Below are positions 4,434 to 55,055 of a stretch of 64,000 nucleotides of DNA, piece by piece. The notes beneath the pieces were generated by a model. That model was not told the origin of the DNA. It ran no database searches and saw only the letters and a list, made by a program, of their open reading frames with translations. The position numbers and the translations under genes were made by a program. Numbering within the stretch: the stretch's first letter is position 1; the number at the start of each line of letters is the position of its first letter. This stretch comes from Eledone cirrhosa (Eukaryota), in contig OZ024742.1 of assembly GCA_964016885.1 (NCBI GenBank), positions 103,106,001-103,170,000 of the forward strand. Reading direction: 5' to 3'.

Positions 4434-5279
4434 CCTATAATAATGTACGGGAGACAGACCCATCATTTATTTTACTTTCGTTATTGAATACTTTCATTTA
4501 TTCAATTTAGACTTTAACAAAACACACAACCATATGTATAGGGAGGAATGTAAGCAACTACTATTATATAACTTCAGATTAGTCACAGAGTGAAGCATGC
4601 CCACAACTTCATTTATATTGTCACCAGAGAACGTTCAAATAATCTAAATTAAAATATCAGGAAGAATTATGATAAAATCTCTATGTAAATTTATATTTAA
4701 TATTACAGCGAACACGTGTTATTTTTAATTTATTGAGTTTAATTAAGACTTATTATTTATGTTGGTGTTGTTGAATTGGTTTGTGCTCTACTACAATATA
4801 AAAATATTTTGTTTTCTTGACAGGGCTGGAGCTTTGGCTAAAAATGTTCTTCATTTGTATAAAATAATTTTAGCCAAAACATTATTGTTATTATTATTCA
4901 TTAATTGAATAATTTCTATTATCTCACTTCTCATTAAAGGGCGGTGGATTGGCAGTATCAGTAGAGCGTTGGACAACATGATTTACAGCTTGAACTCCGA
5001 ATGTAAAGGACTAAAAGTAATGCCACAAAGCTCTAACAATTCTGGCAATCCACTGCCCTCCGTGGGAGACAGAAGTTCTGCTCTCAAACAAATTGAGCGC
5101 AATTGGCGAAATTGATGCACAAAGAGGTTCGATTCTTGAATTTTTAAAATGAAGAAAAACCTTTAAAACACGAGAAATACTAAAACACACTACTAAAGGT
5201 AACAGAAAAGGAAGAAAAGAAAAGAAATGAAAAGGAGAAAAAGAAAGAAGGATCAAGCGACGAAAGAAAGGAAGGGGGC

Positions 5280-15050: not shown

Positions 15051-15874
15051 TTTTTGGTGGCGGGGAAAGCGGATTAAATCGACTCCAGTGCATTACTGGT
15101 GCTTTATTTTATCGACCCCTTAAGGATGAAAAGCAAAGCTAACCTTGGCAGAACTTGAACTTAAGACGTAAAGGACCGTAATGATACGCCACAAATCCTG
15201 TTGTTTGACGCTCTACCGATACTGCCAACCCACCGCCCTCGAATCCACTAAATAATAATAAGCATATAAAGTCTCGCTGTGAGTATTTTATTCTGAACCA
15301 CGCTGTGTTCGTGAGACTGCTAATTAATACCAACCCGTCAAGCATGCACTATATACAAATAAGTATCTCCATAAATGCATTGTTTGCAAATTTCTATCTA
15401 TAAGAAGCTATAGTTTTCTTGCCTCAGTACCAACTAAGTAAATGTCACAATGATCTTGAAATGCTAATATTTAAACTCACACGGTTACTAAGGTAGCTGT
15501 GATATGATCACTGCTTAAAATACTTACAGCGAGACTTTGTATGTTTATTATACATAAATGCGTTAGTGCTACTGCCAACTGTAAAGAGAACAGTTAAGTT
15601 GATTTTTTTCTTTCCAATGAAAAGTTCTGCTCCCAAACATCTTATCGTCTTCCTCACGTCATAACATTTATTCTGCTATTTGAATTATTATTATTTGCCG
15701 ATGTCGACTGTCACTAGTTTTCCCGGCTTCTTCTGCTTCACTGAGATTAGATTGTATTACTTAATGAAGTCTAACTGGATTGCATCTAAAGAGAATATGA
15801 GATTAACCTTTAATGGTGTGTGTGATTGACTTACACATTGTAATAAAATCGCTCACATCTATCTATCTATCTAT

Positions 15875-16013
15875 AAACTGTCTCCCTCTATTGGGGAAAA
15901 TCGACTAACTTTTAAATTCCATCTGTGATAACATTTTACACGTTTTTATTGTATGTAAACTTCCCCCTTTGTATTTGTCCCCTTCTTTTGTGCCCCTGTG
16001 GCTAATAAAGAAA
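15875..16013 (+). mobile_element. 5'-truncated 3'-UTR copy of the Tx1-like LINE family, flanked by (ATCT)n on both sides
   Basis: TGTAAACTTCCCCCTTTGTATTTGTCCCCTTCTTTT...AATAAAGAAA matches 21820-21877; (ATCT)n at 15858-15873 and 16017-16057. Confidence 0.85.
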
Positions 16014-16015
16014 TA

Positions 16016-16058
<43 letters not shown>

Positions 16059-16290
16059 TAAATCTAGCTGTCGTCTGTTCTACAGTGTGGATGTCATTCA
16101 CTTCGCACAGAAGTTTTGTTCAACTTTATTGACGAAATTTTGTGAGTTCAAACTTAATTTTGATACAATTGTGTAGCTTGACCCTCCGTCTGAACTGTCA
16201 GGCGGTGGGTCAGTTCATCTTTACCCCTCCTAGAGGTGAAAAACCTGTTTTAAAAAATTTTGTGTAAAAAATTTCAATCGTCTAACAGAA

Positions 16291-18192
16291 ATGTTAAACG
16301 CAGCGAACGAAAATAGTGGTGGGGGGACAGCGGTAAGAGTTGTAAGCTCGCACGCTTTAGTCCTCCCTTCCTTCCCAACTAACGTCATAGAGAAGGAAGG
16401 AAAAATGAAAATAAAAACGGACGAATCTGCGGAGAAAAAATTAAATGACGAAAACATAAATCTGGACTTGGATTCCAACAACGAAAAAAAAAAATTGGAA
16501 AAATTGCATGACAATACTAATAACACAAACAAAGACACAACAAACAAAAAAATAACAGTTGAAAATAACACCATATCAGAAAACAAAGCAGACGACAAGA
16601 TTTCATTTGCACAGAAAACAAAGAAATCTTTGACTTATATAGCGGAAAACATTTCAGATGTGGTACGAAGGATCACGGACGCCAAACAATACATAAGTGA
16701 AAGTGAGAATGGTATTTTATTGGTAAAAATGCCTCAAGAATTCACGAAAGACATTGAAAGCCGAACGGTCAAGTTTCGGACCATCAACAACAGTACAAAA
16801 AAACCTGAACAGCCTTCTCAAGCAGATATCAAAACAGTACTCACAGAAGTACTGAATGAAACAACTTTCATAAGAAAAGACAGACTGTATGGAAGCCTAG
16901 CAATTATCATGAAGAACGAATCGGCGGCAAAAAAATGTGCTTTGTCACCGATTCGTTCGAAAAATTTCACCTTTTATCCATCTTATATGGGGAAAAAAAC
17001 TCAACGCATATGGCTGGATGCAAGGATGCCAGATGTGGACTACTGCTGGCTCATAGCTGGCTTCATCGATCCAGTGAATGACAACGTGATTTCCATTGGG
17101 AAAACCACAGGCAATGCGTTCAGTGGAACAGGTATAGAGCTGGTAGTACAAATGAAGCCTGAACGCATCGCCCAAATACCCGACAGAATCCTATTAGAGG
17201 ACCACAGGTATATAAACATTAGCGTGGAGGGGAGAAGGCTGTCCTGCCATATCTGTGCAGGCAGAGGGCACCTGAAGGCCGCTTGTCCCCAACTCAACAA
17301 AAAGAAAACCCTGCTACCAACACCAGCTCCACCACCACCACCACAACAGATAAACAAACAACAAAACTCAGTCCCACCCAACCCGTCCCTCAGTAAAACC
17401 ACAACACCACCACAACACAAACAGTCACAACACATTACCCCAAAACAAAATACAGGCCCACCCAACCTCTCACTCAATAAAACAACACAACCACCGCAGA
17501 CACAACACACAACACAGTCTAACATAGTGACATCCATCTCCCCCACAAAGAAAACCAACACGGAAACATTACCAGCAAACATACCTCTTCCCTCCAACAC
17601 TGAAGATAACCCAACGAATTCGGAGGAAGAAACGGAGTCCTTCAGACAGATTAAAAGGAAAAAAAGAAAACATGTGCAAAACACACAAGGACAAACAACC
17701 CCCACCCAAATCGCAACACAATCCAACAAAACAGAAAACACCCCTGCAGCAACAAACAAAACCAAACCTGCCCCTCCCCTCTTCGAAACACTCACACCAT
17801 CGGAAAAAAAGACATTACACTATACTTACATCAACAGAAACAATAATAAATTAAATGAACTCATATACAATAATCCTTCGGTACAAACCGAAGGTGTAAA
17901 CTTTGTTTCGTCAGAAAACCACCCACATTTAAAACTAATAAAAATCCCAATGAACCTCTACCAAAAACTAAAAAAGGATTTTAAGGAGGACGTAGGACCA
18001 CCCTCTGTCAAACCCATAAACCGCGTCCTACTAAAAAGCTTTCCCCCTCCCCTTCCCCTCCCCAACACAACTCCAAACACCCCAACCCCACCACACACTG
18101 ACGACCCCACACCACCACAAGACACCCCTTCACCCAACACCCCCGACCCCATGGAAGTCGTGCAACCCGAACCCCGGGAAGCGGAAAGGTAG
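16291..18192 (+). CDS. LINE ORF1p, gag-like nucleic-acid-binding protein (633 aa)
   Basis: CCHC zinc knuckle CHICAGRGHLKAAC, basic NLS-like KRKKRK, P/T/Q-rich tail; ends 33 nt before ORF2. Confidence 0.85.
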   Translation: MLNAANENSGGGTAVRVVSSHALVLPSFPTNVIEKEGKMKIKTDESAEKKLNDENINLDLDSNNEKKKLEKLHDNTNNTNKDTTNKKITVENNTISENKADDKISFAQKTKKSLTYIAENISDVVRRITDAKQYISESENGILLVKMPQEFTKDIESRTVKFRTINNSTKKPEQPSQADIKTVLTEVLNETTFIRKDRLYGSLAIIMKNESAAKKCALSPIRSKNFTFYPSYMGKKTQRIWLDARMPDVDYCWLIAGFIDPVNDNVISIGKTTGNAFSGTGIELVVQMKPERIAQIPDRILLEDHRYINISVEGRRLSCHICAGRGHLKAACPQLNKKKTLLPTPAPPPPPQQINKQQNSVPPNPSLSKTTTPPQHKQSQHITPKQNTGPPNLSLNKTTQPPQTQHTTQSNIVTSISPTKKTNTETLPANIPLPSNTEDNPTNSEEETESFRQIKRKKRKHVQNTQGQTTPTQIATQSNKTENTPAATNKTKPAPPLFETLTPSEKKTLHYTYINRNNNKLNELIYNNPSVQTEGVNFVSSENHPHLKLIKIPMNLYQKLKKDFKEDVGPPSVKPINRVLLKSFPPPLPLPNTTPNTPTPPHTDDPTPPQDTPSPNTPDPMEVVQPEPREAER

Positions 18193-18225
18193 GTCTCTAC
18201 ACTCTCCTTTGGCTCTGCCGCCCAC

Positions 18226-21200
18226 ATGGATGTGTTAAGAGTAGGATGTTTGAATGCACGTGGCCTGGGCTCAACTTGGAAGCAAGCAAAGCTTCTAAAT
18301 GACCTCAGGTCATGTAGTATAAATGTAATGGTTATCTGTGAGACTCGAATCAGCGTCATGCGGCAGCTGGCCCCCACCTTCGATGACTTTGAGGTGCATG
18401 CATCTCTCTGTCAACCTGGAGGTGGGGGTGGGGTTGTCGTACTGCTGCAAAAACACCTGGGTCTTGCCGTACAGGTTGTGCACTCGGACCCGGAGGGTCG
18501 TTTGTTGGTGCTAGACGTTGGCAGTAGTGAAAGTGCGGCCTTGAGACTGGTCGCCGTCTACTCCCCTTTCGGAGCTGAACGGCCCGACTTCTTCCAGCGT
18601 TTGGAGACTTTTCTGGGAACGTCGCGTTCCCTGCTTCTAGCGGGGGATTGGAATGACATCCTGGATGCACGTTGGGACTATGCAGGAGCATGTCCTAATA
18701 GAGGGGGGTGTAACAGCCTCAAGGGGTTACTCGACCGTTTTAACTTGATCGATAGATATCGACTAGATTTTCCAACTGTGCCTACCTGGACTTGGAGAAA
18801 CCACAGTGGTCAATCTAGATCGTACTTAGATAGATTCTTAGTTAGAAGTAAGGATAGGGACATATTAAGCTGTCCAGAAATGCGCACGGTTGGCTACACG
18901 GATCACAAATTAGTGACCTGCGTGGTCAATCTCGAGAAAACACATAGACAGGGTCCCGGTTACTGGAAACTTAATTTGTCTTTACCGGCAAAAGAGACTT
19001 ACAGAAACCGGATTAGCAGATTAGTTAAGGAGAGGTTGACGGGTGCAATCGTCAACAACCGATGGTGGGCATCTCTCAAAAGAGAGATTAGAACAGAATC
19101 AATAAGTTATAGCAAGATGTTAGCTGCCGATAGGAATAGAAACGAGAAAGAATTAACAGGTAAATTAGAAGAGGCAATCAAGAGCGAAGATGTGGCCAGA
19201 GTGCTGGCATCGAGGACGGCCTTGAACCAGTTTTTCGATGCAAAGCATGAAGGCTGCGTCATTCGAAGTAAAATACGTGCTCTAGGTAATGAGGGGGCCA
19301 AAACCGTTGGATGGGCCCGCGTGACAGAAGCTAAGAGTGGAAATCGATCCACCATCCGGTCGTTGCAAGACGAAGATGGACGAGTGATCCGGGAGCCTAA
19401 GCAGATGTGCGAGGCCTTTCAAAAGCACTTTGCCCGATTGTTCGGGGGAGGCGAGGGTCCGGGCCGGGGCGTGGATTTCGGTCCATACCTCGACGGCCTG
19501 CCGCGTCTCTCGAACAAAGAGGCAGAGTCCTGCGAGGGACCAATCTCGGCTGATGAGATCGGAGATGCGCTGAGCCAATGCAGCAGACGCAAATCTCCAG
19601 GTCTCGATGGTATACCTTACGAACTTTATTTAGCAATGCCGGTCTTCTTCTCCGAACTCCTCGAAGCGGTCTACTGCAATTGGCAGCAGAACGGGAGAAT
19701 TCCTTGTTCTGTAGCCAAGGGCGTAGTCACGCTGGTGAGGAAGGACGAGAACAAGGGGGATAGTATAAATAATTTTCGGCCCATAACCCTGCTAAACACA
19801 GAGTTAAAGATTTTGGCCAAGGTGTTAGCAAAGAGGTTGGCGCTTGTCGTGGGTGGCCTGGTGGGAGATGCGCAGACATGTGCTATCCCATCCAGGTCCA
19901 TTCACGATAACCTCCACCTCATGCGATACATCGTAGAGAGGGTTGGCAACAAACCCGGCTTCGGTGGGGCCCTGATCAACTTGGATCAGTCTAAGGCCTT
20001 CGATAGGGTCGACCATGGTTACCTGGATGCGGTGCTAGCGGCGGCTGGGTTCGGTCCTGTTTTCAGAGGCTGGATCACTGCCCTACATAGCAACCACATC
20101 TGTTCTAGGATCAAGGTGAACGGCTACCTTTCGAAGCCGTTCGAAATCACACGATCCATTCGACAGGGGTGCCCTCTCTCCTCCCTTCTGTACGTATTGA
20201 CTCTCGAGCCTTTACTGAGGAAGTTGGAGTTGTTGCAGAGTATCCCCCTGGAACCAGGATTGAGCAAAGCGGTGTCGGCCTACGCCGATGACGTAACAGT
20301 AATGGTATCAACCGACTCGGAGATCGAGGCGATCGGTACCTTACTGGAGGAGTACGAAAGGTTGTCAGGAGCGAAACTGAACCGGGAAAAATCCATCGGG
20401 CTGCAACTCGGAACGTGGAGAGGCAAACCGATGCCTCCTGACGGTGTCGTCGGACACTGGACGGAGGGCCCGGTAAAGTTGCTTGGGGTCTGGTTTGGAC
20501 CGGACCTCCAGGTGGAAAAGAACTGGAACGAGGTTACGAACAAGGTGTTTGCACTAACCCAGAAATGGGCCAAGTGTAAGCTGTCCCTAAAAGGCCGGGC
20601 GGAGGTGGCGAACATTTACATAGCGTCCGTCACTTACTACCGCCTGACTGTCGTGCCTTGCCCTAAGGAAACACTCACCACCATGGAACGCATGCTCTTC
20701 CAATTTCTTTGGAAGAAGCGTCCTCCTATGGTGAGAAGATCCATCTGCTGCCAACAACCTTCGAAAGGAGGGCTGGGGATGCCGTGGTTGATGATGCGTA
20801 GGCACGCATTAAGGCTACGGCACCTACAGGTATTCCTCACTGGTCAACCGGTGTGGGCTCCGTTCGTGAAACGAGCCTTTCCGAGACTCGTCTCACTCAC
20901 CGAGCTACAGTCCTGGGTCAAGCAAAGATCCGGAAAAATGGGAGACTGGCACACTGAGTGTGCTCAAGCGCTCAGGGCTCTCTGGCAAGCGGGCCAGGCC
21001 ATCGGTGGAGAATCCACCTCATCATTCTATAGAGGGCTGGTGGCTAGCAGGGGCGATGACACCCTTGGAGAGTCGCTGGACATGGAAGAAGACGAACTGG
21101 CCAGCCTGTTCGGTAGGACTTTCGGCCCAGGACCAATGGACAACTTCCAGAAGTCACTGGCCTGGCAGTGCTACCGAGGGGCTCTACCCGTTCGAGAGAG

Positions 21201-21663
21201 GCTCTACAGACACGGGCGCCCGGGCAGGGATCCCTCAAAAAAGATTTGCCCTAGATGCGTGCGTCACGAAGAAACCGTAGCGCACGCATTGGTGCAATGT
21301 CCGGGCGTGGCTGATCTGTGGGGCTACGCCGAACAACTGCTGTCGCGGGTGGCGCCGATTAAATTGACCGCCGAGTCCGTGATGACAATCAAACCGCCTC
21401 CCCTCTTCACAAAGGAAGCAAAGGCGGTTTTTCTGTGCGTAATAGCCATGTTGAAAGAGGTTGTTTGGTGGACACGATTGAAAGGTCTGAGGTCAGGCAA
21501 CTTCCTCTCTGGCCATAGTCTGGTCTACTTCTTCCGATATCACTTCGGAAGAAGGATAAGGATGGAGAGAGAGGTGCTTGGCCACAGGCAGTTTTATGAA
21601 AGGTGGGTGATAGTGGCGAGAATGGCTCGTGTAAATGGGCCTTCTCTGTATACCATCCTGTAG
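18226..21663 (+). CDS. LINE ORF2p: APE endonuclease + reverse transcriptase + C-terminal zinc finger (1145 aa)
   Basis: APE motifs LNARGL, CETR, GDWN, YLDRFL, TDHK; RT motifs KSPGLDG, FRPITLLN, DQSKAFDRVDH, RQGCPLS, YADD; C-terminal CPRC...ETVAHALVQC. Confidence 0.95.
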   Translation: MDVLRVGCLNARGLGSTWKQAKLLNDLRSCSINVMVICETRISVMRQLAPTFDDFEVHASLCQPGGGGGVVVLLQKHLGLAVQVVHSDPEGRLLVLDVGSSESAALRLVAVYSPFGAERPDFFQRLETFLGTSRSLLLAGDWNDILDARWDYAGACPNRGGCNSLKGLLDRFNLIDRYRLDFPTVPTWTWRNHSGQSRSYLDRFLVRSKDRDILSCPEMRTVGYTDHKLVTCVVNLEKTHRQGPGYWKLNLSLPAKETYRNRISRLVKERLTGAIVNNRWWASLKREIRTESISYSKMLAADRNRNEKELTGKLEEAIKSEDVARVLASRTALNQFFDAKHEGCVIRSKIRALGNEGAKTVGWARVTEAKSGNRSTIRSLQDEDGRVIREPKQMCEAFQKHFARLFGGGEGPGRGVDFGPYLDGLPRLSNKEAESCEGPISADEIGDALSQCSRRKSPGLDGIPYELYLAMPVFFSELLEAVYCNWQQNGRIPCSVAKGVVTLVRKDENKGDSINNFRPITLLNTELKILAKVLAKRLALVVGGLVGDAQTCAIPSRSIHDNLHLMRYIVERVGNKPGFGGALINLDQSKAFDRVDHGYLDAVLAAAGFGPVFRGWITALHSNHICSRIKVNGYLSKPFEITRSIRQGCPLSSLLYVLTLEPLLRKLELLQSIPLEPGLSKAVSAYADDVTVMVSTDSEIEAIGTLLEEYERLSGAKLNREKSIGLQLGTWRGKPMPPDGVVGHWTEGPVKLLGVWFGPDLQVEKNWNEVTNKVFALTQKWAKCKLSLKGRAEVANIYIASVTYYRLTVVPCPKETLTTMERMLFQFLWKKRPPMVRRSICCQQPSKGGLGMPWLMMRRHALRLRHLQVFLTGQPVWAPFVKRAFPRLVSLTELQSWVKQRSGKMGDWHTECAQALRALWQAGQAIGGESTSSFYRGLVASRGDDTLGESLDMEEDELASLFGRTFGPGPMDNFQKSLAWQCYRGALPVRERLYRHGRPGRDPSKKICPRCVRHEETVAHALVQCPGVADLWGYAEQLLSRVAPIKLTAESVMTIKPPPLFTKEAKAVFLCVIAMLKEVVWWTRLKGLRSGNFLSGHSLVYFFRYHFGRRIRMEREVLGHRQFYERWVIVARMARVNGPSLYTIL

Positions 21664-21877
21664 GTAAAGAAGTAAAGGAGAGGGGAGCACCTTCTCCATG
21701 TGCTCCCCGGGCAAAGGATTGCACACTTTTTCGGGGGTGTGTGCAACCCCCATCACGTCCCCTCCCTTTTGAGGTTATTTTCGATTATTTTCATGTTACA
21801 CCCTTTTTACTCGATTATATGTAAACTCCCCCTTTGTATTTGTCCCTTCTTTTTATGCCTTTATGGTAAATAAAGAA

Positions 21878-21941
<64 letters not shown>

Positions 21942-21994
21942 GTCTATCTGTCTGTCTGTTTATCTGTTTATCTCTCTATCTATCTATTTATCAA

Positions 21995-22070
<76 letters not shown>
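21878..22070. repeat. (TATC)n grading into (TC)n
   Basis: Direct reading. Confidence 0.95.
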
Positions 22071-22071
<1 letters not shown>

Positions 22072-22080
22072 ATATATATA

Positions 22081-23598
22081 TGGTTTTGTGAAGCCCAGCT
22101 TTTCAAGATTTGTACTGAGGTAGTCACTAATATATCCCAGTGCCCCAATAATCACAGGTATAAATCTGAAGGTCAAGGTGGAGTATCTGCAGATTTCTCT
22201 TTAGTTCTGCATAGATATTCTCCTTTTCGCTTATCTTTAATATTATATTGGCCTCTGCTTGGCAGCTAACTTCCACTACTGTGCATGCCTTCTTTTCCCT
22301 GTCCCATATCATTATATCTCGTCTGTTATGCCTGCATTTTATTGGGCGATTGACTGGAACATTCCACCAGTACTCGTTCATATTATGTATATGTCTTCCA
22401 CATAGCTTTAACTTTTAACGTGTTTATTTTCTACAGATTGCATTGTACAGTGTTTTGGACACTACATCATGCCTCATAGGTAGATAGTACCGCGATGACA
22501 TCTTTGGACAGCTGCTTATGACATGGGTGATATCTTCGATCTTAATCTTGCAGAGTCTGAATTTGTTGTCACATCTAGGTGTTTTGCTTGCATCCCTATC
22601 TCTTTTGTGAATCAAGTATTTTGTATTGATTTCCTGTTCTTGGATTGTAAAAGCCTATCCTTCAAAGTGAGAGACAATATAGCGGTTGTTGGTCCAAGAT
22701 AGACTACTTTGTTTATCTATATTACTCTCACTCTGGAGCTTCCTGGCAACATATCCATGAATGATTTTTTGCTGATAACCATGCAGTTTTTCATAAATGG
22801 TTTCACTGCGGTATTGCTGGACAATTTCCCTAGGTGTGAGTTTTTGATTATCATGCAGGGAGTATCTTTCAAGGAGTTCCTTCCCAACTTTCATGATCTT
22901 TTCAAGTGTAGGAACCCATCTCAACAGATGGGTTCCTACACTTGGAAGTTAGATGTTGTCGGAGGGACATGATGCGACACTCAAATTCTGTCTGGACTGA
23001 TGTTAGGCCTCTGCCTTCCTGCTTACGTTTCAAGTAAAGGTGGTCTATGTCACCGTTGATGTGAAAGTTTCCAGTGTTGTTTAGGATGTTTTGGCTTTTA
23101 ACATCAATAGCTCGGATTTCGTCTATCGTCCAATCGAGTATTCCAAACGTTGGTGTTAGAACAGGCACAGCAAACACATTGTGAACCACTGTTTTATTGT
23201 GCTCAGAGATTTCAGATGACCATATTTTTCTTAATCAGGTGTAATATTTACTGGTTAAGCGTTCCTTATTACAGATATCATCATAGGATATATTCTCATC
23301 CATCTCTAGTTATCTGTTGCAGTCCTCGTCAGATGTCGGCTATTGATAAAACTGATGCTAGATTGGCTTGTAGTTTTTCCTCGCTTTACAATCATATATA
23401 AACATTTGTCCTGGCCAAACTCCATTCCTATATCTTCTGAGAACGTCGTAACCAGGTCAAGATTTTTCTTCATCCCATTTATGTTTCAGGTCATCCACAA
23501 AGAAATTATGGGTTAGGTTCGTATTTCTGTCCTCATGTGGGCTAATTATGTATCCTTCACATTTCTGGAGCAGAAAGGACAAGGGATTTAATGACAGA
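22081..23598 (-). pseudogene. Decayed R4/Dong-type RLE retrotransposon (RT 3' half, zinc knuckle, RLE)
   Basis: LSLNPLSFLL, HNFFVDDLK, PVLTPTFGILDW, SHFEG, RLCKIKIEDITHVISSC, LPMRHD, DIMIWDREKKACTVVEVSC spread over frameshifted ORFs; homologous to 33575-36556. Confidence 0.88.
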
Positions 23599-32515: not shown

Positions 32516-33232
32516 CATCCCAAAAAGAAGAACAAGTCAACATCATTGGATACCATCAGAGTTGCAGGTGTTATATCAGAGTTTTCCTTCTCCTAGAATT
32601 CTGCCTTGACAAAGGTTAAGGGGTCATCTCTCCCGGTGATTTTGGATGGCCATTGACTCTTAAGAGCTCCTTTGCCCTTTGACAGGTTTTGTTTTTAGTC
32701 CTGCAGGATGTCCAAAGTCACCCTCCTCACCAAGAAACATACATACATACATACATACATACATACATGCATACATAAATACATGCATACATACATACAT
32801 GCATACATACATGCATACATACACAAATACATACATACATGCAAACATACATACATTCATACATACATACATACATACATACACTCACAAATACATACAT
32901 GCATGCATACATACATACACTCATAAATACATACATACATACATGCATACATACATAAATACATACATACATGCAAACATACATACGCATATACATACAT
33001 ACATACATGCAAACATACATACGCATATACATACATACATGCAAACATACATACGCATATACATACATACATACATGCAAACATACATACGCATATACAT
33101 ACATACATACGCATATACATACATACATACATACATATGCGTACACTAAAGTTTGAACTTTGAACAGCTGTAAAGAAAATATCGCATTCATGTTTCTGAA
33201 AAAGCCGACCTCAGAGAATTTAGTCTCTCTTC

Positions 33233-33337
<105 letters not shown>

Positions 33338-33493
33338 CTGTGCCCCAGCATGACCGCAGTTTAATGAGTGAAACCCATAAAAGAATATGTATGTATGTAT
33401 ATTTGCATGCACGCATGTATGTATGTATCTGTGTATGTGTGTATGTATGTATGTATGTATGTATGTATGTATGTATGTATGTATGTATGTATG

Positions 33494-36400
33494 TTTTCTC
33501 TTTCTCTTAATTTCGAGTATATTTTTTTGACCGGCCACCTTCCTGGTGGCAAGGTTGTAAAAGAAAAGAAATTGTCATCCCTTGAATCGCAAGAATGTTT
33601 TGCAAATTTTGAAGGTGCCAGCTATCGCAGCCATTTGTAGACTATGAATTAGGGAGCTGCGCTTTTTGTCCGCAAATCCAAGTTCAGTCATACTTTGGTC
33701 CAGGCGGGTTGGTATATAACCCGTAGCACCAATAATGATGGGTATGAAGCTAAAGGTGTATCTTGGATACTGGATTTGTAAACTCCTCATCAATGGTCCG
33801 TAGATGTCCTCTTTTTCCTGTATTTTTCTGACAACGTTTACATCAAGTGGGCAGCTGATCTCCACAACAGAACACGTTTTCAATGTGTGGTCCCAAACTA
33901 CAATATCAGGCCGGTTGTGCTTTAATTTGGTGGCAGTTTTTATTTTCAGGTTCCACCAGTATTCCTTAGTGCCATCTGTCTCAATATATTCTTCCTCGTT
34001 TGTTGTTAATTTTGTTTTCCGAAGTGCGTTCCAGATGGTTCTAGCTATCCCATCGTGTCTCATGGGGAGGTAGTAGCGAGATGACATTCTTTCGCAGCTG
34101 GCAACAATGTGGCTTACATCCTCGATCTTTGTTTTACATAGCCTACATTTATTGTCAGCTGCTGGCCCTCCTATTTTGTGCAGCAGATATTTGGTAGGGA
34201 GTTCTTGTTCCTGTATTGCATAGAGGTATCCCTCAAGGTGTGATGTCATAAACTTGTCGGAACTCCATACCAGGCTTTTTGAGTGGTTTATCCCCTCTAT
34301 GGTCTGTGTTTTACGCCTCAAGTATCCATGCACAACTTTTTCTGTAAATTGGTCAATTTTTTTATCTTGTTTGAACATTGAATAGGATCTTCCGATTTCT
34401 CTGGGTGAGAGATTTATATCAGGCTTTATTCCATATCTCTCCTCCAGATCAGTCGTTATTCTAATGATATTTCTTTTTTCATGGTCATAAACCTGGGCAA
34501 GATGGTTGCCAACCTTTTTCCTCTGTTGAAGGTGTTGCTTCAGTGTTACTATCCGGGTCTCATATGTTGTTAATATTGATTTTAGACCCCGACCACCTTC
34601 CTTGCGTGAGAAGTATAGCCTATCCACATCACCATTGATGTTAAAGTTCCCAGTAACACTGAGAAGTTTTCGAGTTCTAACATCCATCTCACTTAGTTCT
34701 TGCAATGGCCAGTTCAGTAGGCCAAATGTTGGCGTTAGAATTGGCACAGCATAAGTATTGTGGGCAATGTATTTGTTGTATGCTGACAGTTCTGATGACC
34801 ATATTTTCTTTACCCTTCTGAGGTATTCAGTTCTGGTTCTCTCCTTATTTATGGGTCCATCATATCTGACATTCTCATCCTGTCCAAGATATCTGTAGTT
34901 GTCACCTGACTGCAGAGGTTGTATTGTCAGGCCGTTCATCTCTAGATTTCTAGAGGAGGGCACAGCTCTTCCACGTTTTACTGCCAAATATGCACACTTG
35001 GACTCACCAAATTTCATTTTGATGTCGGTTGAAAATTGTGTAATGAGGTCCAATTGTTTCTTGATGTCATTGATATTTGGCCCATACAACTTCAGGTCAT
35101 CAACAAAGAAAAGATGGGAGATACTTCTGGGCCCACTTCTTTGTCCACCTTGTTTCCTGAGTAGGTAAGATAGTGGATTCAGTGAGAGAACGAAGAGTAG
35201 CACTGACAAGCTATCACCCTGAAAGATGCCCTTCTGGTAATGTATCTTATCAGTCTTAACCTGCTCCTTCTCACCTCTAAGGATCAAACTGGTGTACCAG
35301 TTCTTGGTCAGGCGTTCAACAGCAGCTACCAATGGTTGTGGGACTTTAGCTAACTGTAAAGCCTTAACAATCCACCCATGAGGTACACTATCAAATGCTT
35401 TTTGATAGTCCAGCCACACGACAGTCATGTTTCTGCGATTCTTTGTTGTTTTTTCCTGAATCATTTTGTTAGTTAGTAGGTGATCTATGCAACCCCACAC
35501 CTCCCTCTTTCCACCAGCTTGCTCAGGTGTTATGATGTTGTTGGTAGCACAGTGATCCTGTAAGAACAGGTTAAGGCACCCAGTATATAATTTATACATG
35601 ATGTTTTGGCAGGCAATTGGGCGGTAATTTTTAGCAAGGGTGGTTTGGCTATTTTTGGGAATGAGGAGAGTAGTGGCAGTTGATAACCATCTGGGCAGTT
35701 CTTGTGTGCCCTTAATGATTTCTGTAAACAGCCGTATGAGATCTTGCCGATAGAAAGTGAAATTCTTCAACCAGTATCCTGTAATGAGGTCTGGGCCTGG
35801 CGATTTCCTATTCGACATTTTCTGTAGAGCTGTTTCCAGTATTGACCCATCTATGTCATATTGTTTTGTCTGGACATGTTGGCAGTAGTCCTGTTCCAGT
35901 TCTTTTAGCCAATTAGCTTGTCTGTTGAATCCGTCATCCGTTTCCCATACAGATCTCCAGTAGCTCTCAACCTGTTCTTTTGAAGGGGTGTCATTTACAG
36001 AGATTGAGCTTTTGCCACCGAAGCTGCGATAAACTGATTTAGGATCTCTGGCAAACAATCTATTTAGCACTTGTCGTTTATGTGCTGTTGACTTATATTT
36101 CAGTCTTTCTGTTGTAGCTGTGAGTTGTTGTTTCAACTGGTGTAATTTGGAGTTCAAAGTTTTAAATTTTGTATCTCCAAATCGTCTCTCTAACTTTTTC
36201 TTTAGGTCTTCCTGGTGTCGTGTGAAGCTGCTCTCTATGTTGCATTTCATAACGACTGCGATGTGTGAGATACTTCGTCTCAGGGACAAAATTTTGGATT
36301 TTAAATTTCGCATCCACGCTGGTTCAGGCTTCCCGCTTGTATCTTGATTGCGTGGTTTTAGATGTGTGTTATATGATAGCAATGTGACAGCTGAAACATA

Positions 36401-36556
36401 TAACAAAACATTAAGCGTTTCAAATGTCGTTTCTACACCTTTAGATCGTATAGCCTTCAGATAACTGCCAGCTATTTCGTTCACCGCTTCCAATTCCAAT
36501 TTAGTGGGTTCTTTACTGACTCTAGTGTTGTATGGTCTGTCACTCACATTAAGGCT
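33494..36556 (-). mobile_element. 5'-truncated R4/Dong-type RLE non-LTR retrotransposon inserted in (CATA)n
   Basis: Uninterrupted ORF plus an 81-nt 3' UTR with hairpin GCCACC/GGTGGC (33534-33550); (CATA)n on the element strand at both ends (36557-37163 and 33387-33493). Confidence 0.92.
33575..36556 (-). CDS. RT + CCHC knuckle + PD-(D/E)xK-type RLE polyprotein, about 990 aa, N-terminus missing
   Basis: PAWMRNL, KSPGPDLITGYWLK, YRPIAC, LDYQKAFDSVPH, GIFQGDSLS, FVDDLK, CRLC...EDVSHIVASC, RHD, RPDIVVWD...VVEISCP. Confidence 0.9.
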   Translation of the reverse strand, partial: SLNVSDRPYNTRVSKEPTKLELEAVNEIAGSYLKAIRSKGVETTFETLNVLLYVSAVTLLSYNTHLKPRNQDTSGKPEPAWMRNLKSKILSLRRSISHIAVVMKCNIESSFTRHQEDLKKKLERRFGDTKFKTLNSKLHQLKQQLTATTERLKYKSTAHKRQVLNRLFARDPKSVYRSFGGKSSISVNDTPSKEQVESYWRSVWETDDGFNRQANWLKELEQDYCQHVQTKQYDIDGSILETALQKMSNRKSPGPDLITGYWLKNFTFYRQDLIRLFTEIIKGTQELPRWLSTATTLLIPKNSQTTLAKNYRPIACQNIMYKLYTGCLNLFLQDHCATNNIITPEQAGGKREVWGCIDHLLTNKMIQEKTTKNRRNMTVVWLDYQKAFDSVPHGWIVKALQLAKVPQPLVAAVERLTKNWYTSLILRGEKEQVKTDKIHYQKGIFQGDSLSVLLFVLSLNPLSYLLRKQGGQRSGPRSISHLFFVDDLKLYGPNINDIKKQLDLITQFSTDIKMKFGESKCAYLAVKRGRAVPSSRNLEMNGLTIQPLQSGDNYRYLGQDENVRYDGPINKERTRTEYLRRVKKIWSSELSAYNKYIAHNTYAVPILTPTFGLLNWPLQELSEMDVRTRKLLSVTGNFNINGDVDRLYFSRKEGGRGLKSILTTYETRIVTLKQHLQQRKKVGNHLAQVYDHEKRNIIRITTDLEERYGIKPDINLSPREIGRSYSMFKQDKKIDQFTEKVVHGYLRRKTQTIEGINHSKSLVWSSDKFMTSHLEGYLYAIQEQELPTKYLLHKIGGPAADNKCRLCKTKIEDVSHIVASCERMSSRYYLPMRHDGIARTIWNALRKTKLTTNEEEYIETDGTKEYWWNLKIKTATKLKHNRPDIVVWDHTLKTCSVVEISCPLDVNVVRKIQEKEDIYGPLMRSLQIQYPRYTFSFIPIIIGATGYIPTRLDQSMTELGFADKKRSSLIHSLQMAAIAGTFKICKTFLRFKG

Positions 36557-37057
36557 GTGTATGTATGTATGTATGTATGTATGTATGTATGTATGTATGT
36601 ATGTATGTATGTATGTATGTATGTATGCATGCAGGTATGTATGTATGTATGTATGCATGCAGGTATGTATGTATGTATGCAGGTATGAATGTATGTATGT
36701 ATGTATGTATGTATGTATGTATGTATGTATGTATGTATGTATGTATGCAGGTATGTATGTATGAATGTATGCGTGTATGTATGTAGGTATGTATATGTGT
36801 GTATGTATGTATGCATGTGTATGCATGTATGTATGTATGCAGGTATGTATGCATGTATGTATGTATGTGTATGTATGTATGTATGTATGTATGTATGTAT
36901 GTATGTATGTATGTATATATATATGTATGTATGTATGTATGTATATATGTATATATCTGTATGTATGAATGTATATATGTATGTATATATTTATGTGTGC
37001 ATGTATGTATGTATATATGTGTATGTATATGTATGTATGTATGTATATATGTGTATG

Positions 37058-37089
<32 letters not shown>

Positions 37090-37559
37090 TGTATGTATGT
37101 ATGTATGTATGTATGTATGTATGTGTATGTATGTATGTGTATGTATGTATATATGTATATATGTCTATGCATTTTTGTACGTTCATGAGTAAAAAGATAA
37201 ATAACCTTTGCCTTCCCTTTATATAAAACATTTCGGCAAAACTTAAAAAGTTACAAAACTAAAACATGAAACAAAACAAAAGAGAACCCCCTCCTCCCTG
37301 TTTGTTATTGATGATTCTACACTACAGCTGTGATAAATACGACGTTGATAAATGGTTTGACCATATGTATATATGTGTAGGTATATATATGTATATGTAT
37401 GTGTTTGTGTGATTGACCTCCGTACATACCTCATGAGATAAATAACAACCAGCTTTCCCAGGGAAAACAGTTTCCGCCCTTTACTACTTCTAGTAACAAC
37501 AACAACAACAACAAACTAAAGACAAAACAAGAATAAATAAATAAATAATACAGCATCAA

Positions 37560-51865: not shown

Positions 51866-51990
51866 TAGGAACGAGTAGGACCCCGACGGCTGAACTCAAG
51901 CCGTTTCGACGGCTAATTTTGGACTAAAAATTTTAGTCCAGAATTAGCCGTCGAAACGGCTTGAGCTCAGCTGTCGGGTTCCTACTCGTT

Positions 51991-51995
<5 letters not shown>
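51866..51995. repeat. 64-bp-arm palindrome (4 mismatches) containing the 3' half of a hammerhead
   Basis: Arms compared by hand; contains GAAA-CGGC-TTGAGCTCA-GCTG-TC-GGG. Confidence 0.9.
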
Positions 51996-52060
<65 letters not shown>

Positions 52061-52061
<1 letters not shown>

Positions 52062-55055
52062 TGATGCTCGCTACCTCCCAAATAACCGACAGTGACTATA
52101 TAATTATTGCAGGCGACCTAAATGGTCATGTTGGACAACATTGTGACGGCTATGACGGAATCCATGGAGGCTATGGGTTCGGTACTAGAAATGAGGAAGG
52201 CTCCAGAATCCTGGAATTCTGTGACGCAAATAACCTAACTATCTGTAACACTAACTTCAAAAAACGAGACAATCACTTGATCACCTATAGATCGGGGGAA
52301 CACACAAGCCAGGTAGATTATATCCTTACCAGAAGACGTGACAGAGTGTCTGTTGTAAACACTAAATCCCTCCCCCATGAAGAATGCACCGCCCAACATA
52401 GACTGATAATTAGCGACCTCATAGTCAGAACGAGACGTACTAGACAGCAGAAGAGGACTATCCTCAGGAGAAAAATATGGAAGCTAAAGGACCCCAGAGC
52501 CAGAAATAAATTTCAAAGCATATTACTTGATGCTTTCGACAGTAAGGAAGAGCAATTAGAGTCGTATAATATAGAGGAACAGTGGGGATTCCTGAAAGCA
52601 AACCTGCTGACGGCGGCAGACGAAGTCTGTGGCTGGAACAGGCCTGTAGGTAGGAGGAGAGTAACATCGTGGTGGAACAGTAAGGTGGAGGAGTCAATTA
52701 AGGCCAAAAAGCAGGCTTGGAAAGTATGGCGGGATGGGGGAAGTAGAGAAGACTATCAAGTGGCCAGGAGGGAAGCTAGGACACAAGTGTACTTCGCAAG
52801 AAGGGAAGCAGAGGAAAGAAAGTTCAAGCATGTTCTACAGCGTGAGGACCAAAAATGTGAGGTGTTCAGGATGGCTAGGCAATGTGTCAAGGAAAACCGT
52901 GATATTGTCGGGGAGAAGTGTGTCCTTAATGATGATGGCGTACTTGCCATCACTGACGCTGATAAGAAGGTAGCTTGGAAGTGTCACTACGAAAGGCTTC
53001 TAAATGAGGAGAATAAATGGGAGAAAGACAGTCTCCCCCACATCGTCCCAATAGAGGGATCAGCAGTGTTAGTCGGAAATAGTTGCTGAGATGCTGAAAG
53101 CCTCTGGAACGGTGGGACACACCATGTCACCCGGATAGTAAACCAAGTCATACAGAATGGGGTTGTTCCGAAGGACTGGCGTAGCAGCATCATCATTAAC
53201 TGTTACAAGGGTAAAGGAGATGCCCTAGATAGGAGTAACTATAGAGGCATTAAATTAATCGACCATGTCATGAAGGTCACGGAAAAAGTAATAGCGCAAC
53301 TAATCAGAGAGAGAATTGATCTAGATGAAATGCAGTTCGGGTTTGTGTCAGGCAAAAGTACCACAGACGCTCTTTTCATTGTACGACAACTACAGGAGAA
53401 GTACCTAGCTAAAAGTAAACCCCTATACTTAGCTTTTGTTGACTTGGAGAAAGCCTTCGACAGAGTCCCCCGTTCCATTATCTGGTGGGCTCTTAGAAAA
53501 CAAGGTGTTGACGAATGGCTTGTGAGAGCTAGACAAGCCATGTATAAAGAAACAGTCAGCAAGGTTAGAATTAACAACGAATATAGTGAAGAGTTTAGTG
53601 TAAAAGTTGGTGTTCATCAGGGCTCTGTTCTTAGCCCCCTACTATTTATTATTGCCCTTCAGGCTATAACAGTGGAGTTCAAGACCGGCTGCCCATGGGA
53701 ACTCCTATACGCAGATGATCTAACGCTCATAGCTGAATCAATGGCCGAGCTAGAGAAGAAATTCCAAACATGGAAGCACGGCCTAGAATCAAAAGGCCTT
53801 AAAATTAACCTGGCTAAGACTAAAGTTCTAGTTTGTAGGAAAGAAAATATGGCGCCGGTCCCTTCCGGGAAATGGCCATGCTCAGTGTGTAGGAAAGGCG
53901 TAGGTAGAAACTCCATTTTATGTCCCAAATGCAAAGTATGGGTGCATAAAAGATGTAGTGGGATCACAGGTAAGCTAACTAAGAACAGATTTTACATGTG
54001 GCCGGTGCTCTGGTGCAATAAGTAGCAGCAAGTGCCCACAGAATACTAGCTCTTTCAATTGCGCAGAGGGTTCTATAGAAATAGTGGACAGCTTCCGTTA
54101 CCTGGGTGACAAAATCAGCAGTGGGGGAGGGTGCTCTGAAAGTACAGTAGCTAGAGTCAGAACTGGATGGAAAAAAGTTCAGAGAGCTTATACCACTATT
54201 AGCCGCTAAAGGGTTCTCCCTAAAAATGAAAGGCAGGCTGTATGATGCCTGCATACGAACAGCAATGTTGCATGGCAGTGAGACCTGGGCATTGCGTGCA
54301 GAGGATATACGCAAACTAGAGAGGAACGAAGCTTGCATGCTCCGCTGGATGTGTAATAGTAATATACGTGAACGGCAAAGCATAAACGAACTAAGGGAAA
54401 AATTAGAAATAAGAGGGATCAGATGTTGTTTACTCGAGAGAAGGCTACGTTGGTATGGTCACGTGATGCGCATGAAAGACGACAGCTGTATAAAAAAGTG
54501 CAGGGCAATAAAGATAGACGGTAGCCACGGAGTAGGCAGACCCAGAAAAACCTGGGACGAGCTGATAAATTCCGACCTCACACACTTACACCTCTCCAAG
54601 ACAATGTCACTGGACCGAGATCTTTGGCGGTACTCAGTAATAGAGAAGACCTGCCTTGCCTAAATACAAAGTAAACCTACTACAGTCAGTAGGCATCTCT
54701 AACAAAATACGCCCCCGTCCCACCACCCCCACCCCATCCACACCGCCCCCTTCTATGTAAAGTTATGTTGGTGCCATACCATCCAGGCCGAAACAAATGA
54801 GATCGTGTAGGTGTCACGACAAAAAAACACACAGTCCACGCTGTAATGTGGCCGTGTAGGCAACACGGTAAAAACCTCCCAGACCCACACTGTAAATGTG
54901 GTTGGTGTTAGGAAGGGCATCCAGCTGTAGAAAACCCGCCAGACAGTCCTATGCGAGCAAGACAATCACTCTTGCCTCAAGTGGGAAAACCCCCGTCCAA
55001 ACCCATGCAAGCGTGGAACATGGACGTTAAACGTTGATGATGATGGTGATGATGA

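Follow-up and report, generated by a model that had tools for sequence, protein, structure and literature searches.

Long interspersed nuclear elements (LINEs) that specialize in microsatellites are few, and the targets reviewed in passages of PMC3812793 and PMC4494074 are (TC)n, (TTC)n, (TTCC)n/(TTTC)n, (AC)n, (ACAY)n and (TAA)n. Kibi, specific for (TC)n, and Koshi, specific for (TTC)n, are Tx1-clade LINEs of teleost fishes (Kojima & Fujiwara 2004, as cited in passages of PMC4494074 and PMC3812793), and crocodilian families of the Tx1-1_Crp group prefer (TTCC)n/(TTTC)n, a preference judged by the presence of the microsatellite in more than 20% of flanks (PMC4494074, in part). Waldo, which targets (ACAY)n, and Mino, which targets (AC)n, belong to the R1 clade, and Dong, which targets (TAA)n, belongs to the R4 clade (PMC3812793, in part). 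The element described here, a 5.8-kb LINE, lies between (ATCT)n arrays in a 64-kb window of the cephalopod Eledone cirrhosa genome (the whole stretch of DNA analysed, 64,000 nt of contig OZ024742.1). We consider it highly probable that this is a young and abundant LINE of the apurinic/apyrimidinic endonuclease (APE) type that inserts one-way into (ATCT)n/(GATA)n, likely by target-primed reverse transcription in which an (AUCU)n tail pairs with the nicked GATA strand.

The element works like Kibi and Koshi, with which it shares an APE-type coding organization, microsatellite-specific insertion, a repeat tail matching the target and the lack of poly(A), but it is not a member of either family because its target, the tetranucleotide (ATCT)n/(GATA)n, differs. 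With the crocodilian Tx1 families it shares a preference for a tetranucleotide microsatellite spread over several related families, and it easily exceeds the same 20% of flanks; it differs in its repeat, ATCT, in the phylum of its host, and in that its target-site duplications and likely nick site can be read. Waldo, Mino and Dong are likewise microsatellite-specific LINEs, of other clades. Human LINE-1 ORF2p (PDB 8sxt, 8uw3 and 8c8j) is collinear with the second open reading frame (ORF2) product of the element across endonuclease, reverse transcriptase (RT) and thumb, with the catalytic motifs in place, and the likeness extends to target-primed reverse transcription, a similar duplication length and, as the junctions here suggest, pairing of the RNA tail with the nicked target. 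Whereas LINE-1 uses TTTT/A sites, carries a poly(A) tail and is mostly 5′-truncated, the present element uses GATA/ATCT sites, would carry an (AUCU)n tail in its RNA, and reaches its 5′ end in ~70% of copies.

L1-Tx1 elements have been listed in other cephalopods. L1-Tx1 is among the LINEs expanded in coleoids in a 2022 paper (PMC8967140, in part), and, for Octopus vulgaris, a repeat annotation published in 2026 gives 421 insertions, 2.29 Mb in all, for 13 'L1-Tx1' families classed as recently active (PMC13282606, Table 1); the mean of ~5.4 kb per insertion in that table implies that they are mostly full-length, as here, also in a cephalopod host. These are probably the same kind of element. 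The relevant passages of PMC13282606 and PMC8967140 contain no mention of a target preference for cephalopod L1-Tx1. In the openly searchable literature, a scope that does not extend to Repbase and subscription papers, no LINE specific for (GATA)n/(ATCT)n was found; (GATA)n/(ATCT)n is a new target among the known microsatellite-specialist LINEs.

Flanks of the element in the window and in the genome

The layout of the locus was established by direct reading of positions 15300-22600, by Tandem Repeats Finder (TRF), and by an ORF listing under the standard code; all features are on the plus strand. An (ATCT)4.5 run at 15858-15875, either a remnant of the target or a target-site duplication, forms the 5′ junction of a truncated copy of a sister family, designated B. 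This copy is a 137-bp, 5′-truncated 3′ end (15876-16012) that terminates in ...GGCTAATAAAGAA, and over its last ~65 nt it closely matches the 3′ end of the full element. ATAT and (ATCT)10 follow at 16013-16058, an array that is the tail or the target of the B fragment and that the full element, a member of the family designated A, entered. Three variable junction bases, 'taa' (16059-16061), separate the array from the conserved 5′ end of the LINE body, which occupies 16062-21877 with two open ORFs; such junction bases (2-3 nt) vary among copies, and ATCTAGCTGTCG... is constant. The (ATCT)n tail or target array on the 3′ side (21878-21998) is perfect to ~21941 and then consists of degenerate TCTG/ATCT units. 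It adjoins (TC)35 at 21999-22069, which belongs to the original compound microsatellite rather than to the element and does not lie at the LINE junction.

This reading bears out the order given in the original prediction, that is, (ATCT)n, 3′ fragment, (ATCT)n, full element with two ORFs, (ATCT)n, and also the ATCT repeats claimed for the 5′ junction of the truncated copy. The diverged fragment of ~140 bp is indeed a 3′ fragment, but of sister family B and not of the same family, and the supposed tandem array consists of two pieces head to tail. Chance co-occurrence of the LINE and the ATCT runs is excluded, because TRF lists no other ATCT array in the rest of the 64-kb window and at least two ATCT units, in any phase, lie within 30 bp upstream of only 315 of 115,280 positions (0.27%) in the rest of the window. 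Contigs of run X2 had a depth of 0.43 over the unique 5′ flank (15600-15826), and none spanned the insertion site.

The association was then followed through the 3.0-Gb genome by exact k-mer counts paired with reversed-sequence controls. The terminal 28-mer of family A at the 3′ end has 1404 exact sites (control, 0), its first 15 nt have 823 (control, 1), and its first 29 nt have 498. Individual loci are given L numbers below. An unselected census was made of the first 40 exact 3′ ends along contig C1, with the scripted upstream measure just given. At least two ATCT units were present upstream in 29 of the 40 copies, comprising 24 of 29 5′-complete copies (binomial p ~1e-57 against the base rate) and five of 11 truncated copies, of which one, L118, is doubtful because its break lies inside an internal CCA repeat. 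The repeat was in reversed orientation in none of the 40, and 30 of the 40 had ATCT units downstream. Both the upstream and the downstream proportions lie well above the 20% of flanks used for the crocodilian families (PMC4494074, in part), as does that of a complete census of the first 85 Mb of C1, where 24 of 27 real 5′ ends have at least two units within 30 bp; this total comprises eight strict sites and 16 of the 20 sites that fail the strict pattern and pass by eye, the other four being three in (TA)n or TC-rich sequence and one spurious.

Among the 30 best-matching full-length copies, every one has an upstream ATCT run ending within ~12 nt of the conserved ATCTAGCTG. On the 3′ side, a set of the 30 best-matching copies, truncated ones included, is followed by ATCT (27) or ATAT (three) units, and 23 of these 30 flanks begin with ATCTATCT, which also follows 771 of the 1404 exact 3′ ends genome-wide. 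At the other end, (ATCT)3 lies within 8 nt upstream of 187 of 402 reverse-strand 5′ ends, a strict pattern that misses imperfect and slightly more distant runs; only the reverse-strand figure is used, the forward-strand count (315) being inflated by overlapping matches. In the opposite orientation, (AGAT)3 was found upstream of none of the 823 5′ ends. Thus most copies do not have the non-GATA 5′ flanks that would speak against the prediction: ATCT units lie upstream in 30 of 30, 24 of 27 and 29 of 40 copies.

ATCT units at target sites before insertion

The target-site duplications begin with TATCT or TATAT and continue into unique DNA. One example, running from ATCT units into unique sequence, is ATCTATCTATCTATATGAAAGA in L061, and further such duplications are found in L064, L066, L069, L072, L102, L104, L113, L115, L120, L127, L128, L131, L133 and L134. 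By script, 28 of 60 copies have a flank duplication extending at least 5 nt beyond perfect ATCT periodicity, some of these being merely (TA)n. L131 is located inside a satellite of ~36 bp, in which adjacent units show the uninterrupted site ..GATTCTATCTATTAAATACTATAGAC.. (TCTATCTAT), and the LINE at L131 is bordered by a duplication of TCTATCTATTAAATACTATAGA.

Empty sites were also found in an unrelated repeat ending ...ACAATCATACACACCCGTGTATATTTATCTATCT (..GTGTATATTTATCTATCT), of which 15 copies were retrieved with a LINE-free query. At four of these, among them the query locus, a LINE of this group begins immediately behind 3-17 ATCT units, two of the LINEs being full-length at different offsets and two truncated at different points, and the remaining 11 of the 15 are empty, with ~1.5-5 ATCT units followed by (TA)n. 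Because these empty paralogous sites already carry ATCT units, the ATCT run existed before the LINE insertion. More LINE-hit instances of the same repeat were met by chance at L070, L074, L099/L137 and in the flank of L028.

The unrelated repeat itself (L061:250-476, L141-L155) has at least 268 candidate copies with inverted-repeat-like ends, and (TA)n comes after its terminal ..GTGTATATTTATCTATCT. These LINEs have struck the short ATCT end repeatedly; the repeat is possibly a short interspersed nuclear element (SINE) or a miniature inverted-repeat transposable element (MITE) using the same machinery.

Junctions and a model of insertion

Target-primed reverse transcription is indicated by the duplications of ~14-19 bp and by the 5′ truncation of 11 of the 40 census copies. 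Junctions inside arrays are ambiguous, but copies with the tail variant GAA-ATAT-ATCT allow the left boundary of the duplication to be read. L102 reads GTC^TATCTTTTAGTCTGTCA with a 17-bp duplication, L134 reads TTC^TATATGTCTCTTGTGTTG with an 18-bp duplication, L113 and L128 have 16-bp duplications, and L105 and L138 behave alike. In all six readable ATAT-tail copies (L102, L105, L113, L128, L134 and L138), the duplication starts with TAT and the preceding target base is C, from which we infer that the first nick falls at bottom-strand GATA^G.

The following model would account for these junctions. Transcripts likely end in the downstream ATCT run, as AATAAA lies 3 nt before that run, which would place (AUCU)n at the 3′ terminus of the RNA or close to it. 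Cleavage of the bottom strand by the endonuclease is likely at 5′-..(A)GATA^G..-3′ (top strand ..ATC^TATC..), and the ...AGATA-3′ end so released probably anneals to UAUCU in the RNA tail, where it serves as primer for the cDNA; this pairing would reproduce the observed junction GAA-ATA-TATCT, and synthesis primed on the tail would explain why tails differ in length and why poly(A) is lacking. A second cut, in the top strand, likely falls ~14-19 bp downstream, where no consensus is evident, and yields duplications that begin with TATCT or TATAT, and the cDNA end is likely joined with 2-3 extra bases before (A)ATCTAGCTG. The 5′ ATCTA of the element may pair with the array during second-strand joining, which would fit the high full-length share. 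Array targets are commoner in full-length than in truncated copies (24/29 vs 5/11, Fisher p = 0.042; p = 0.087 without L118), an association that is suggestive only as support for pairing of the 5′ ATCTA.

Tail pairing might also do almost all of the work, the endonuclease having little preference and the (AUCU)n tail picking ATCT sites almost wholly by pairing with breathing or nicked DNA. The secondary targets, (TA)n and TATAT, can pair with an AUAU tail variant (L114, L122 and L134), and the tail variants (ATAT vs ATCT) travel with subfamilies, both of which favour such guidance. However, the C that precedes the duplication in all six readable cases suggests a defined cleavage context, and passages of PMC4494074 hold the endonuclease to be the main determinant in related target-specific LINEs. 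We regard selection by the RNA alone as rather unlikely, the present junctions fitting a contribution of the protein as well as of the tail.

Several points weigh against this model or limit its reach. The putative nick position, the proposed RNA-tail pairing and the possible role of the 5′ ATCTA are all read from junctions, and the scored 3′-end and 5′-end samples are best-scoring candidates, biased towards young copies. Of the 29 full-length census copies, five are found in (TA)n or TC-rich repeats that have no more than one ATCT unit (L114, L120, L122, L129 and L138), six of the 11 truncated census copies lack two upstream units, and only seven of 18 distinct truncated copies have them when the samples are pooled; truncated L112 and L123 have neither upstream ATCT nor a readable duplication. 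Two perfect units follow only 55% of the exact 3′ ends. As L102 and L134 were inserted at a single TATCT or TATAT, a short motif can suffice, and array 'specificity' may partly be a matter of site density: (ATCT)4 has 264,314 overlapping matches genome-wide, and isolated CTATCT, counted in the rest of the window at ~303 per Mb and strand, would number ~1.8 million by extrapolation. A bare 6-mer rule, estimated by extrapolation from this one 58-kb sample, would send roughly 15-20% of insertions into arrays, whereas ~72-89% are observed there; therefore two or more ATCT units are favoured, by the protein or by tail pairing. Taken together, the ATCT preference is strong but not absolute. The '(GATA)n-specific' insertion originally predicted is supported, with the caveat that, among truncated copies taken alone, fewer than half show the association.

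Stacks of copies and other explanations of the ATCT association

Copies frequently adjoin one another. Within 130 bp of their 3′ end, 11 of 30 copies run into a further copy, which is a full 5′ end in four cases and a truncated or sister piece in seven. On the 5′ side, nine of the 30 best-matching full-length copies are preceded by the tail of a copy belonging to the same family or a sister one, and eight of the 40 census copies, by eye, by a tail of this kind; the second copies in stacks are all in the same orientation. These flanks agree with the expectation that the family repeatedly hits the same array. Each insertion would bring new ATCT units, beside which later A or sister copies would land, as in the pair of B and A in the window; that pair records two separate insertions, because its pieces belong to different families.

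Head-to-tail stacks could instead have arisen by unequal crossing-over or segmental duplication of one insertion. Three full-length copies on C1 (348917508, 348923343 and 348929178), spaced 5835 bp apart, share the identical junction ATCTATCTATCTATATgaa, which indicates a tandem duplication of one inserted copy, not three insertions, and L131 and L132 are duplicates with identical flanks. As a general origin of the stacks, duplication is improbable, since the window pieces come from different families and many stacks join different families, or a full copy with differently truncated ones.

A further alternative is that (ATCT)n is only the element's own 3′ tail, as in many CR1/L2-type LINEs, that insertion is untargeted, and that the upstream runs are expanded duplications or the tails of neighbours. 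All 30 best-matching copies do end in ATCT or ATAT units, tails have been carried to non-array sites (L112 and L123 have ATCT units downstream only), and nine of the 30 upstream runs are indeed tails of other copies. The other 21 are not, however, and upstream runs occur in 24 of the 29 full-length census copies against the base rate of 0.27%, often exceeding 70-130 bp where the copy is ~99% identical to that of the window. The unrelated repeat has empty paralogues that already bear ATCT units, and satellite neighbours of L131 show the uninterrupted TCTATCTAT site. Untargeted insertion with a repeat tail is thus very improbable. Passive accumulation, in which insertion occurs anywhere and survival is favoured in microsatellite-rich, gene-poor or low-recombination DNA, as proposed for Waldo-A/B near CA repeats in Drosophila (PMC3812793, in part), would suit the wealth of varied simple repeats in the window and in many flanks, but can practically be dismissed, given that the junctions lie within a few bases of ATCT units and not of the equally common TA, TC, TG and ACAT repeats, that orientation to the repeat strand is fixed (0/40 and 0/823 reversed), that duplications start with TATCT, and that the copies are too young for much selective sorting.

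Families, copy number and age

All 40 scored 3′-end matches are 100% identical over the last 178 nt. Twenty fetched copies, a set biased as above, are 98.0-99.6% identical to the window copy, and 18 of them are full-length (5791-5823 bp); the census copies are ~90-99.7% identical to it. The 29 of 40 census copies that reach the 5′ end amount to a full-length share of ~70%, which is very high for a LINE. Among these 29, ORF1 is of the window length class in six, ORF2 has at least 1140 aa in six, and both hold in three; the corresponding numbers among the 20 fetched copies, a biased set, are seven for both ORFs and 13 for ORF2. The window copy therefore falls within the minority with both frames open, and the family has been active until very recently. 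The predicted potential for activity is consistent with the copy identity of 90-99.7%, the identical 3′ ends and the three of 29 copies with both ORFs open.

The terminal 27-mer of family B has 5881 exact sites in the genome, and the window fragment is accordingly a copy of a sister family more abundant than A. Of these B ends, 2670 are followed by ATATATCT or ATCTATCT, mostly ATATATCT. Family B is ~81% identical to A in the 3′ part of ORF2 (L038). Flanks yielded at least four additional sister 3′ ends, and the last ~65 nt are common to all six families.

The 3′ untranslated region (UTR) of the window copy extends over 21664-21877, with AATAAA at 21869-21874, 3 nt ahead of the repeat tail, and no poly(A). 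The conserved ~65-nt end (21813-21877 in the element, 15948-16012 in the B fragment; L083, L084, L092 and L097) reads ..TGTAAAC..CCCC..TTGTA..TGTCCC..TGCC..GG..AATAAA..GAA, and the remainder of the 3′ UTR is diverged among the six sister families. RNAalifold on the conserved end gave a 4-bp hairpin, GCC(N5)GGC, only, with one compensatory pair, and for the 3′ UTR as a whole the fold is only slightly more stable than those of shuffled sequences (z = -1.8). Conservation of sequence at the 3′ end is clear, and conserved RNA structure amounts at most to the predicted 4-bp hairpin. Just 3′ of the ORF2 stop (21683-21708; L085, L119 and L005), three families can form the same hairpin, with arms GGGGAGCAC-N9-GUGCUCCCC, GGGAGCAC-N9-GUGCUCC and GGAGUAC-N9-GUACUCC; it has one C-G to U-A change among families and is not always chosen by minimum-free-energy folds.

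Four of 18 distinct 5′-truncated copies (L015, L028, L029/L135 and L111) begin within 14 nt of each other, at element positions 4555-4568 (window ~20613-20626; ..catttacaTAGCGTCCGTCAC..), and two truncated sister copies in flanks (L009 and L028) begin at the same motif. This interval is a recurrent truncation point or an internal start.

Pieces of the element were also present in contigs of runs X5, X6 and X8, from three other organisms. Aligned to 15600-22400, they are ~97-100% identical, with 0-13 differences over 150-850 bp, across ORF1 and ORF2, and in X6 and X8 a contig has 21665 joined to 15872, so that an A-like ORF2 end passes into a B-type 3′ UTR. The near-identical pieces fit either shared descent or transfer.

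Coding capacity and classification

The 5′ UTR (16062-16290) starts with ATCTAGCTGTCGTCTGTTC, and its first 19 nt are common to the sister subfamilies. ORF1 (16291-18192) encodes 633 aa and ends in TAG, and ORF2 (18226-21663) encodes 1145 aa with an APE-type endonuclease, RT and a putative C-terminal Cys/His zinc-binding region; both are open, as predicted.

The ORF1 product carries a CX2CX4HX4C (CCHC) knuckle at aa 319-332 (nt 17245-17286). It matched no Pfam family, a word search with residues 100-340 returned no homologues, and a single-sequence AlphaFold model had a predicted local distance difference test (pLDDT) value of 32.7, too low for use. Its P/T/Q-rich stretch holds an 84-bp internal tandem duplication (17342-17516). 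Between copies, ORF1 varies by a 21-bp indel (626 vs 633 aa; copies examined, L063, L064, L066, L076 and L118), and one copy has an expanded CCA repeat in the P/T/Q-rich part. The TAG stop of ORF1 is in frame with ORF2, whose ATG follows 11 codons later (18190-18228), and the same in-frame spacing is found in other copies with both ORFs open (e.g. L107, L116 and L133); such spacing would allow stop read-through or re-initiation.

In the ORF2 product, the endonuclease (~18292-18906, with GDWN at 18643 and DH at 18901) matched Exo_endo_phos at 33.1 bits (Pfam cut-off 24.5; aa 23-227), and the RT (~19759-20490, with YADD at 20281) matched RVT_1 at 95.6 bits (cut-off 29.6; aa 512-755). The Cys/His region (~21151-21321) contains CPRC...H...C at aa 1008-1025, and the zf-RVT match of 26.9 bits is 0.6 bits below the Pfam cut-off of 27.5; a Cys/His zinc-binding domain at this place is a trait of the L1 group, which comprises the L1 and Tx1 clades. 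With the endonuclease followed by RT in one ORF, the element is an APE-type non-LTR retrotransposon (non-long-terminal-repeat retrotransposon), or LINE.

ORF2 aligns to human L1 ORF2p over residues 8-855 (E = 3e-50), with GDWN, DH and YADD opposite GDFN, DH and FADD of the human protein, and R2 proteins match it over the RT only, at 1e-20 or weaker. Endonuclease structures of R1Bm and TRAS1 exist in the PDB. At E <= 0.001, ORF2 matched L1 but no endonuclease structure from the R1 clade. At the level of sequence, the element has the architecture of the L1 group, because its ORF2 is closest to L1 ORF2p across endonuclease and RT. An ORF1 with an RNA-binding fold and a CCHC knuckle defines the Tx1 clade. 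The family shows a target-sequence preference, a trait common in the Tx1 clade (PMC4494074, in part). Homologue searches with ORF2, a cluster look-up and a protein atlas returned no named Tx1, Kibi or Koshi reference. The best named RT relative is a hypothetical protein of the octopod Argonauta hians, with 67% identity over the RT, followed by turtle, fish and coral proteins at 36-41% identity; plant L1-type proteins are also among the ORF2 homologues. The predicted Tx1-like affinity is plausible, membership of the L1 group alone being demonstrated.

Other retroelements in the window

A second long open frame, of 1227 aa, lies on the minus strand at 33578-37258 and contains RVT_1 and a near-threshold zf-RVT; it is only ~23% identical to ORF2 of the ATCT element. 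Arrays of (ACAT)n, (TATG)n and (TGTA)n border the frame (32737-33137, 33386-33494 and 36558-37164), part of which runs through the (TGTA)n array, and it may be another microsatellite-associated LINE, of the ACAT repeat type. At 51965-54022 on the plus strand, two adjoining open frames with Exo_endo_phos_2, RVT_1 and a PHD finger form the remnant of a third, different retrotransposon.

Significance for LINE target choice and cephalopod genomes

A specialist for (GATA)n/(ATCT)n adds a new target to those of microsatellite LINEs and probably a new host phylum. It also offers unusually good natural material, as young copies number in the thousands across two or more sister families, ~70% of copies are 5′-complete, and readable duplications point to one putative nick site (GATA^G). 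Such material makes it possible to test the shares of the endonuclease and of pairing between RNA tail and DNA in the choice of LINE targets, a question for which pairs of subfamilies differing in tail (ATAT vs ATCT) are available. Site-specific LINEs are in addition of practical interest as models of targeted DNA insertion.

A more far-reaching possibility, which we put forward tentatively and do not favour, is that the lineage both programmes and manufactures its own landing site. The (AUCU)n tail, not the protein alone, would select GATA/ATCT, and insertions, even those at a bare TATCT, would deposit ATCT units, so that the more than 7000 A and B copies could have seeded and spread a good part of the ATCT arrays in the genome in a self-reinforcing loop between LINE and microsatellite. 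If it were true that the tail alone sets the target, changing the tail could in principle change the target. The family bears on how a transposon may create and spread the microsatellite on which it depends, and on the repeat-rich architecture of cephalopod genomes.

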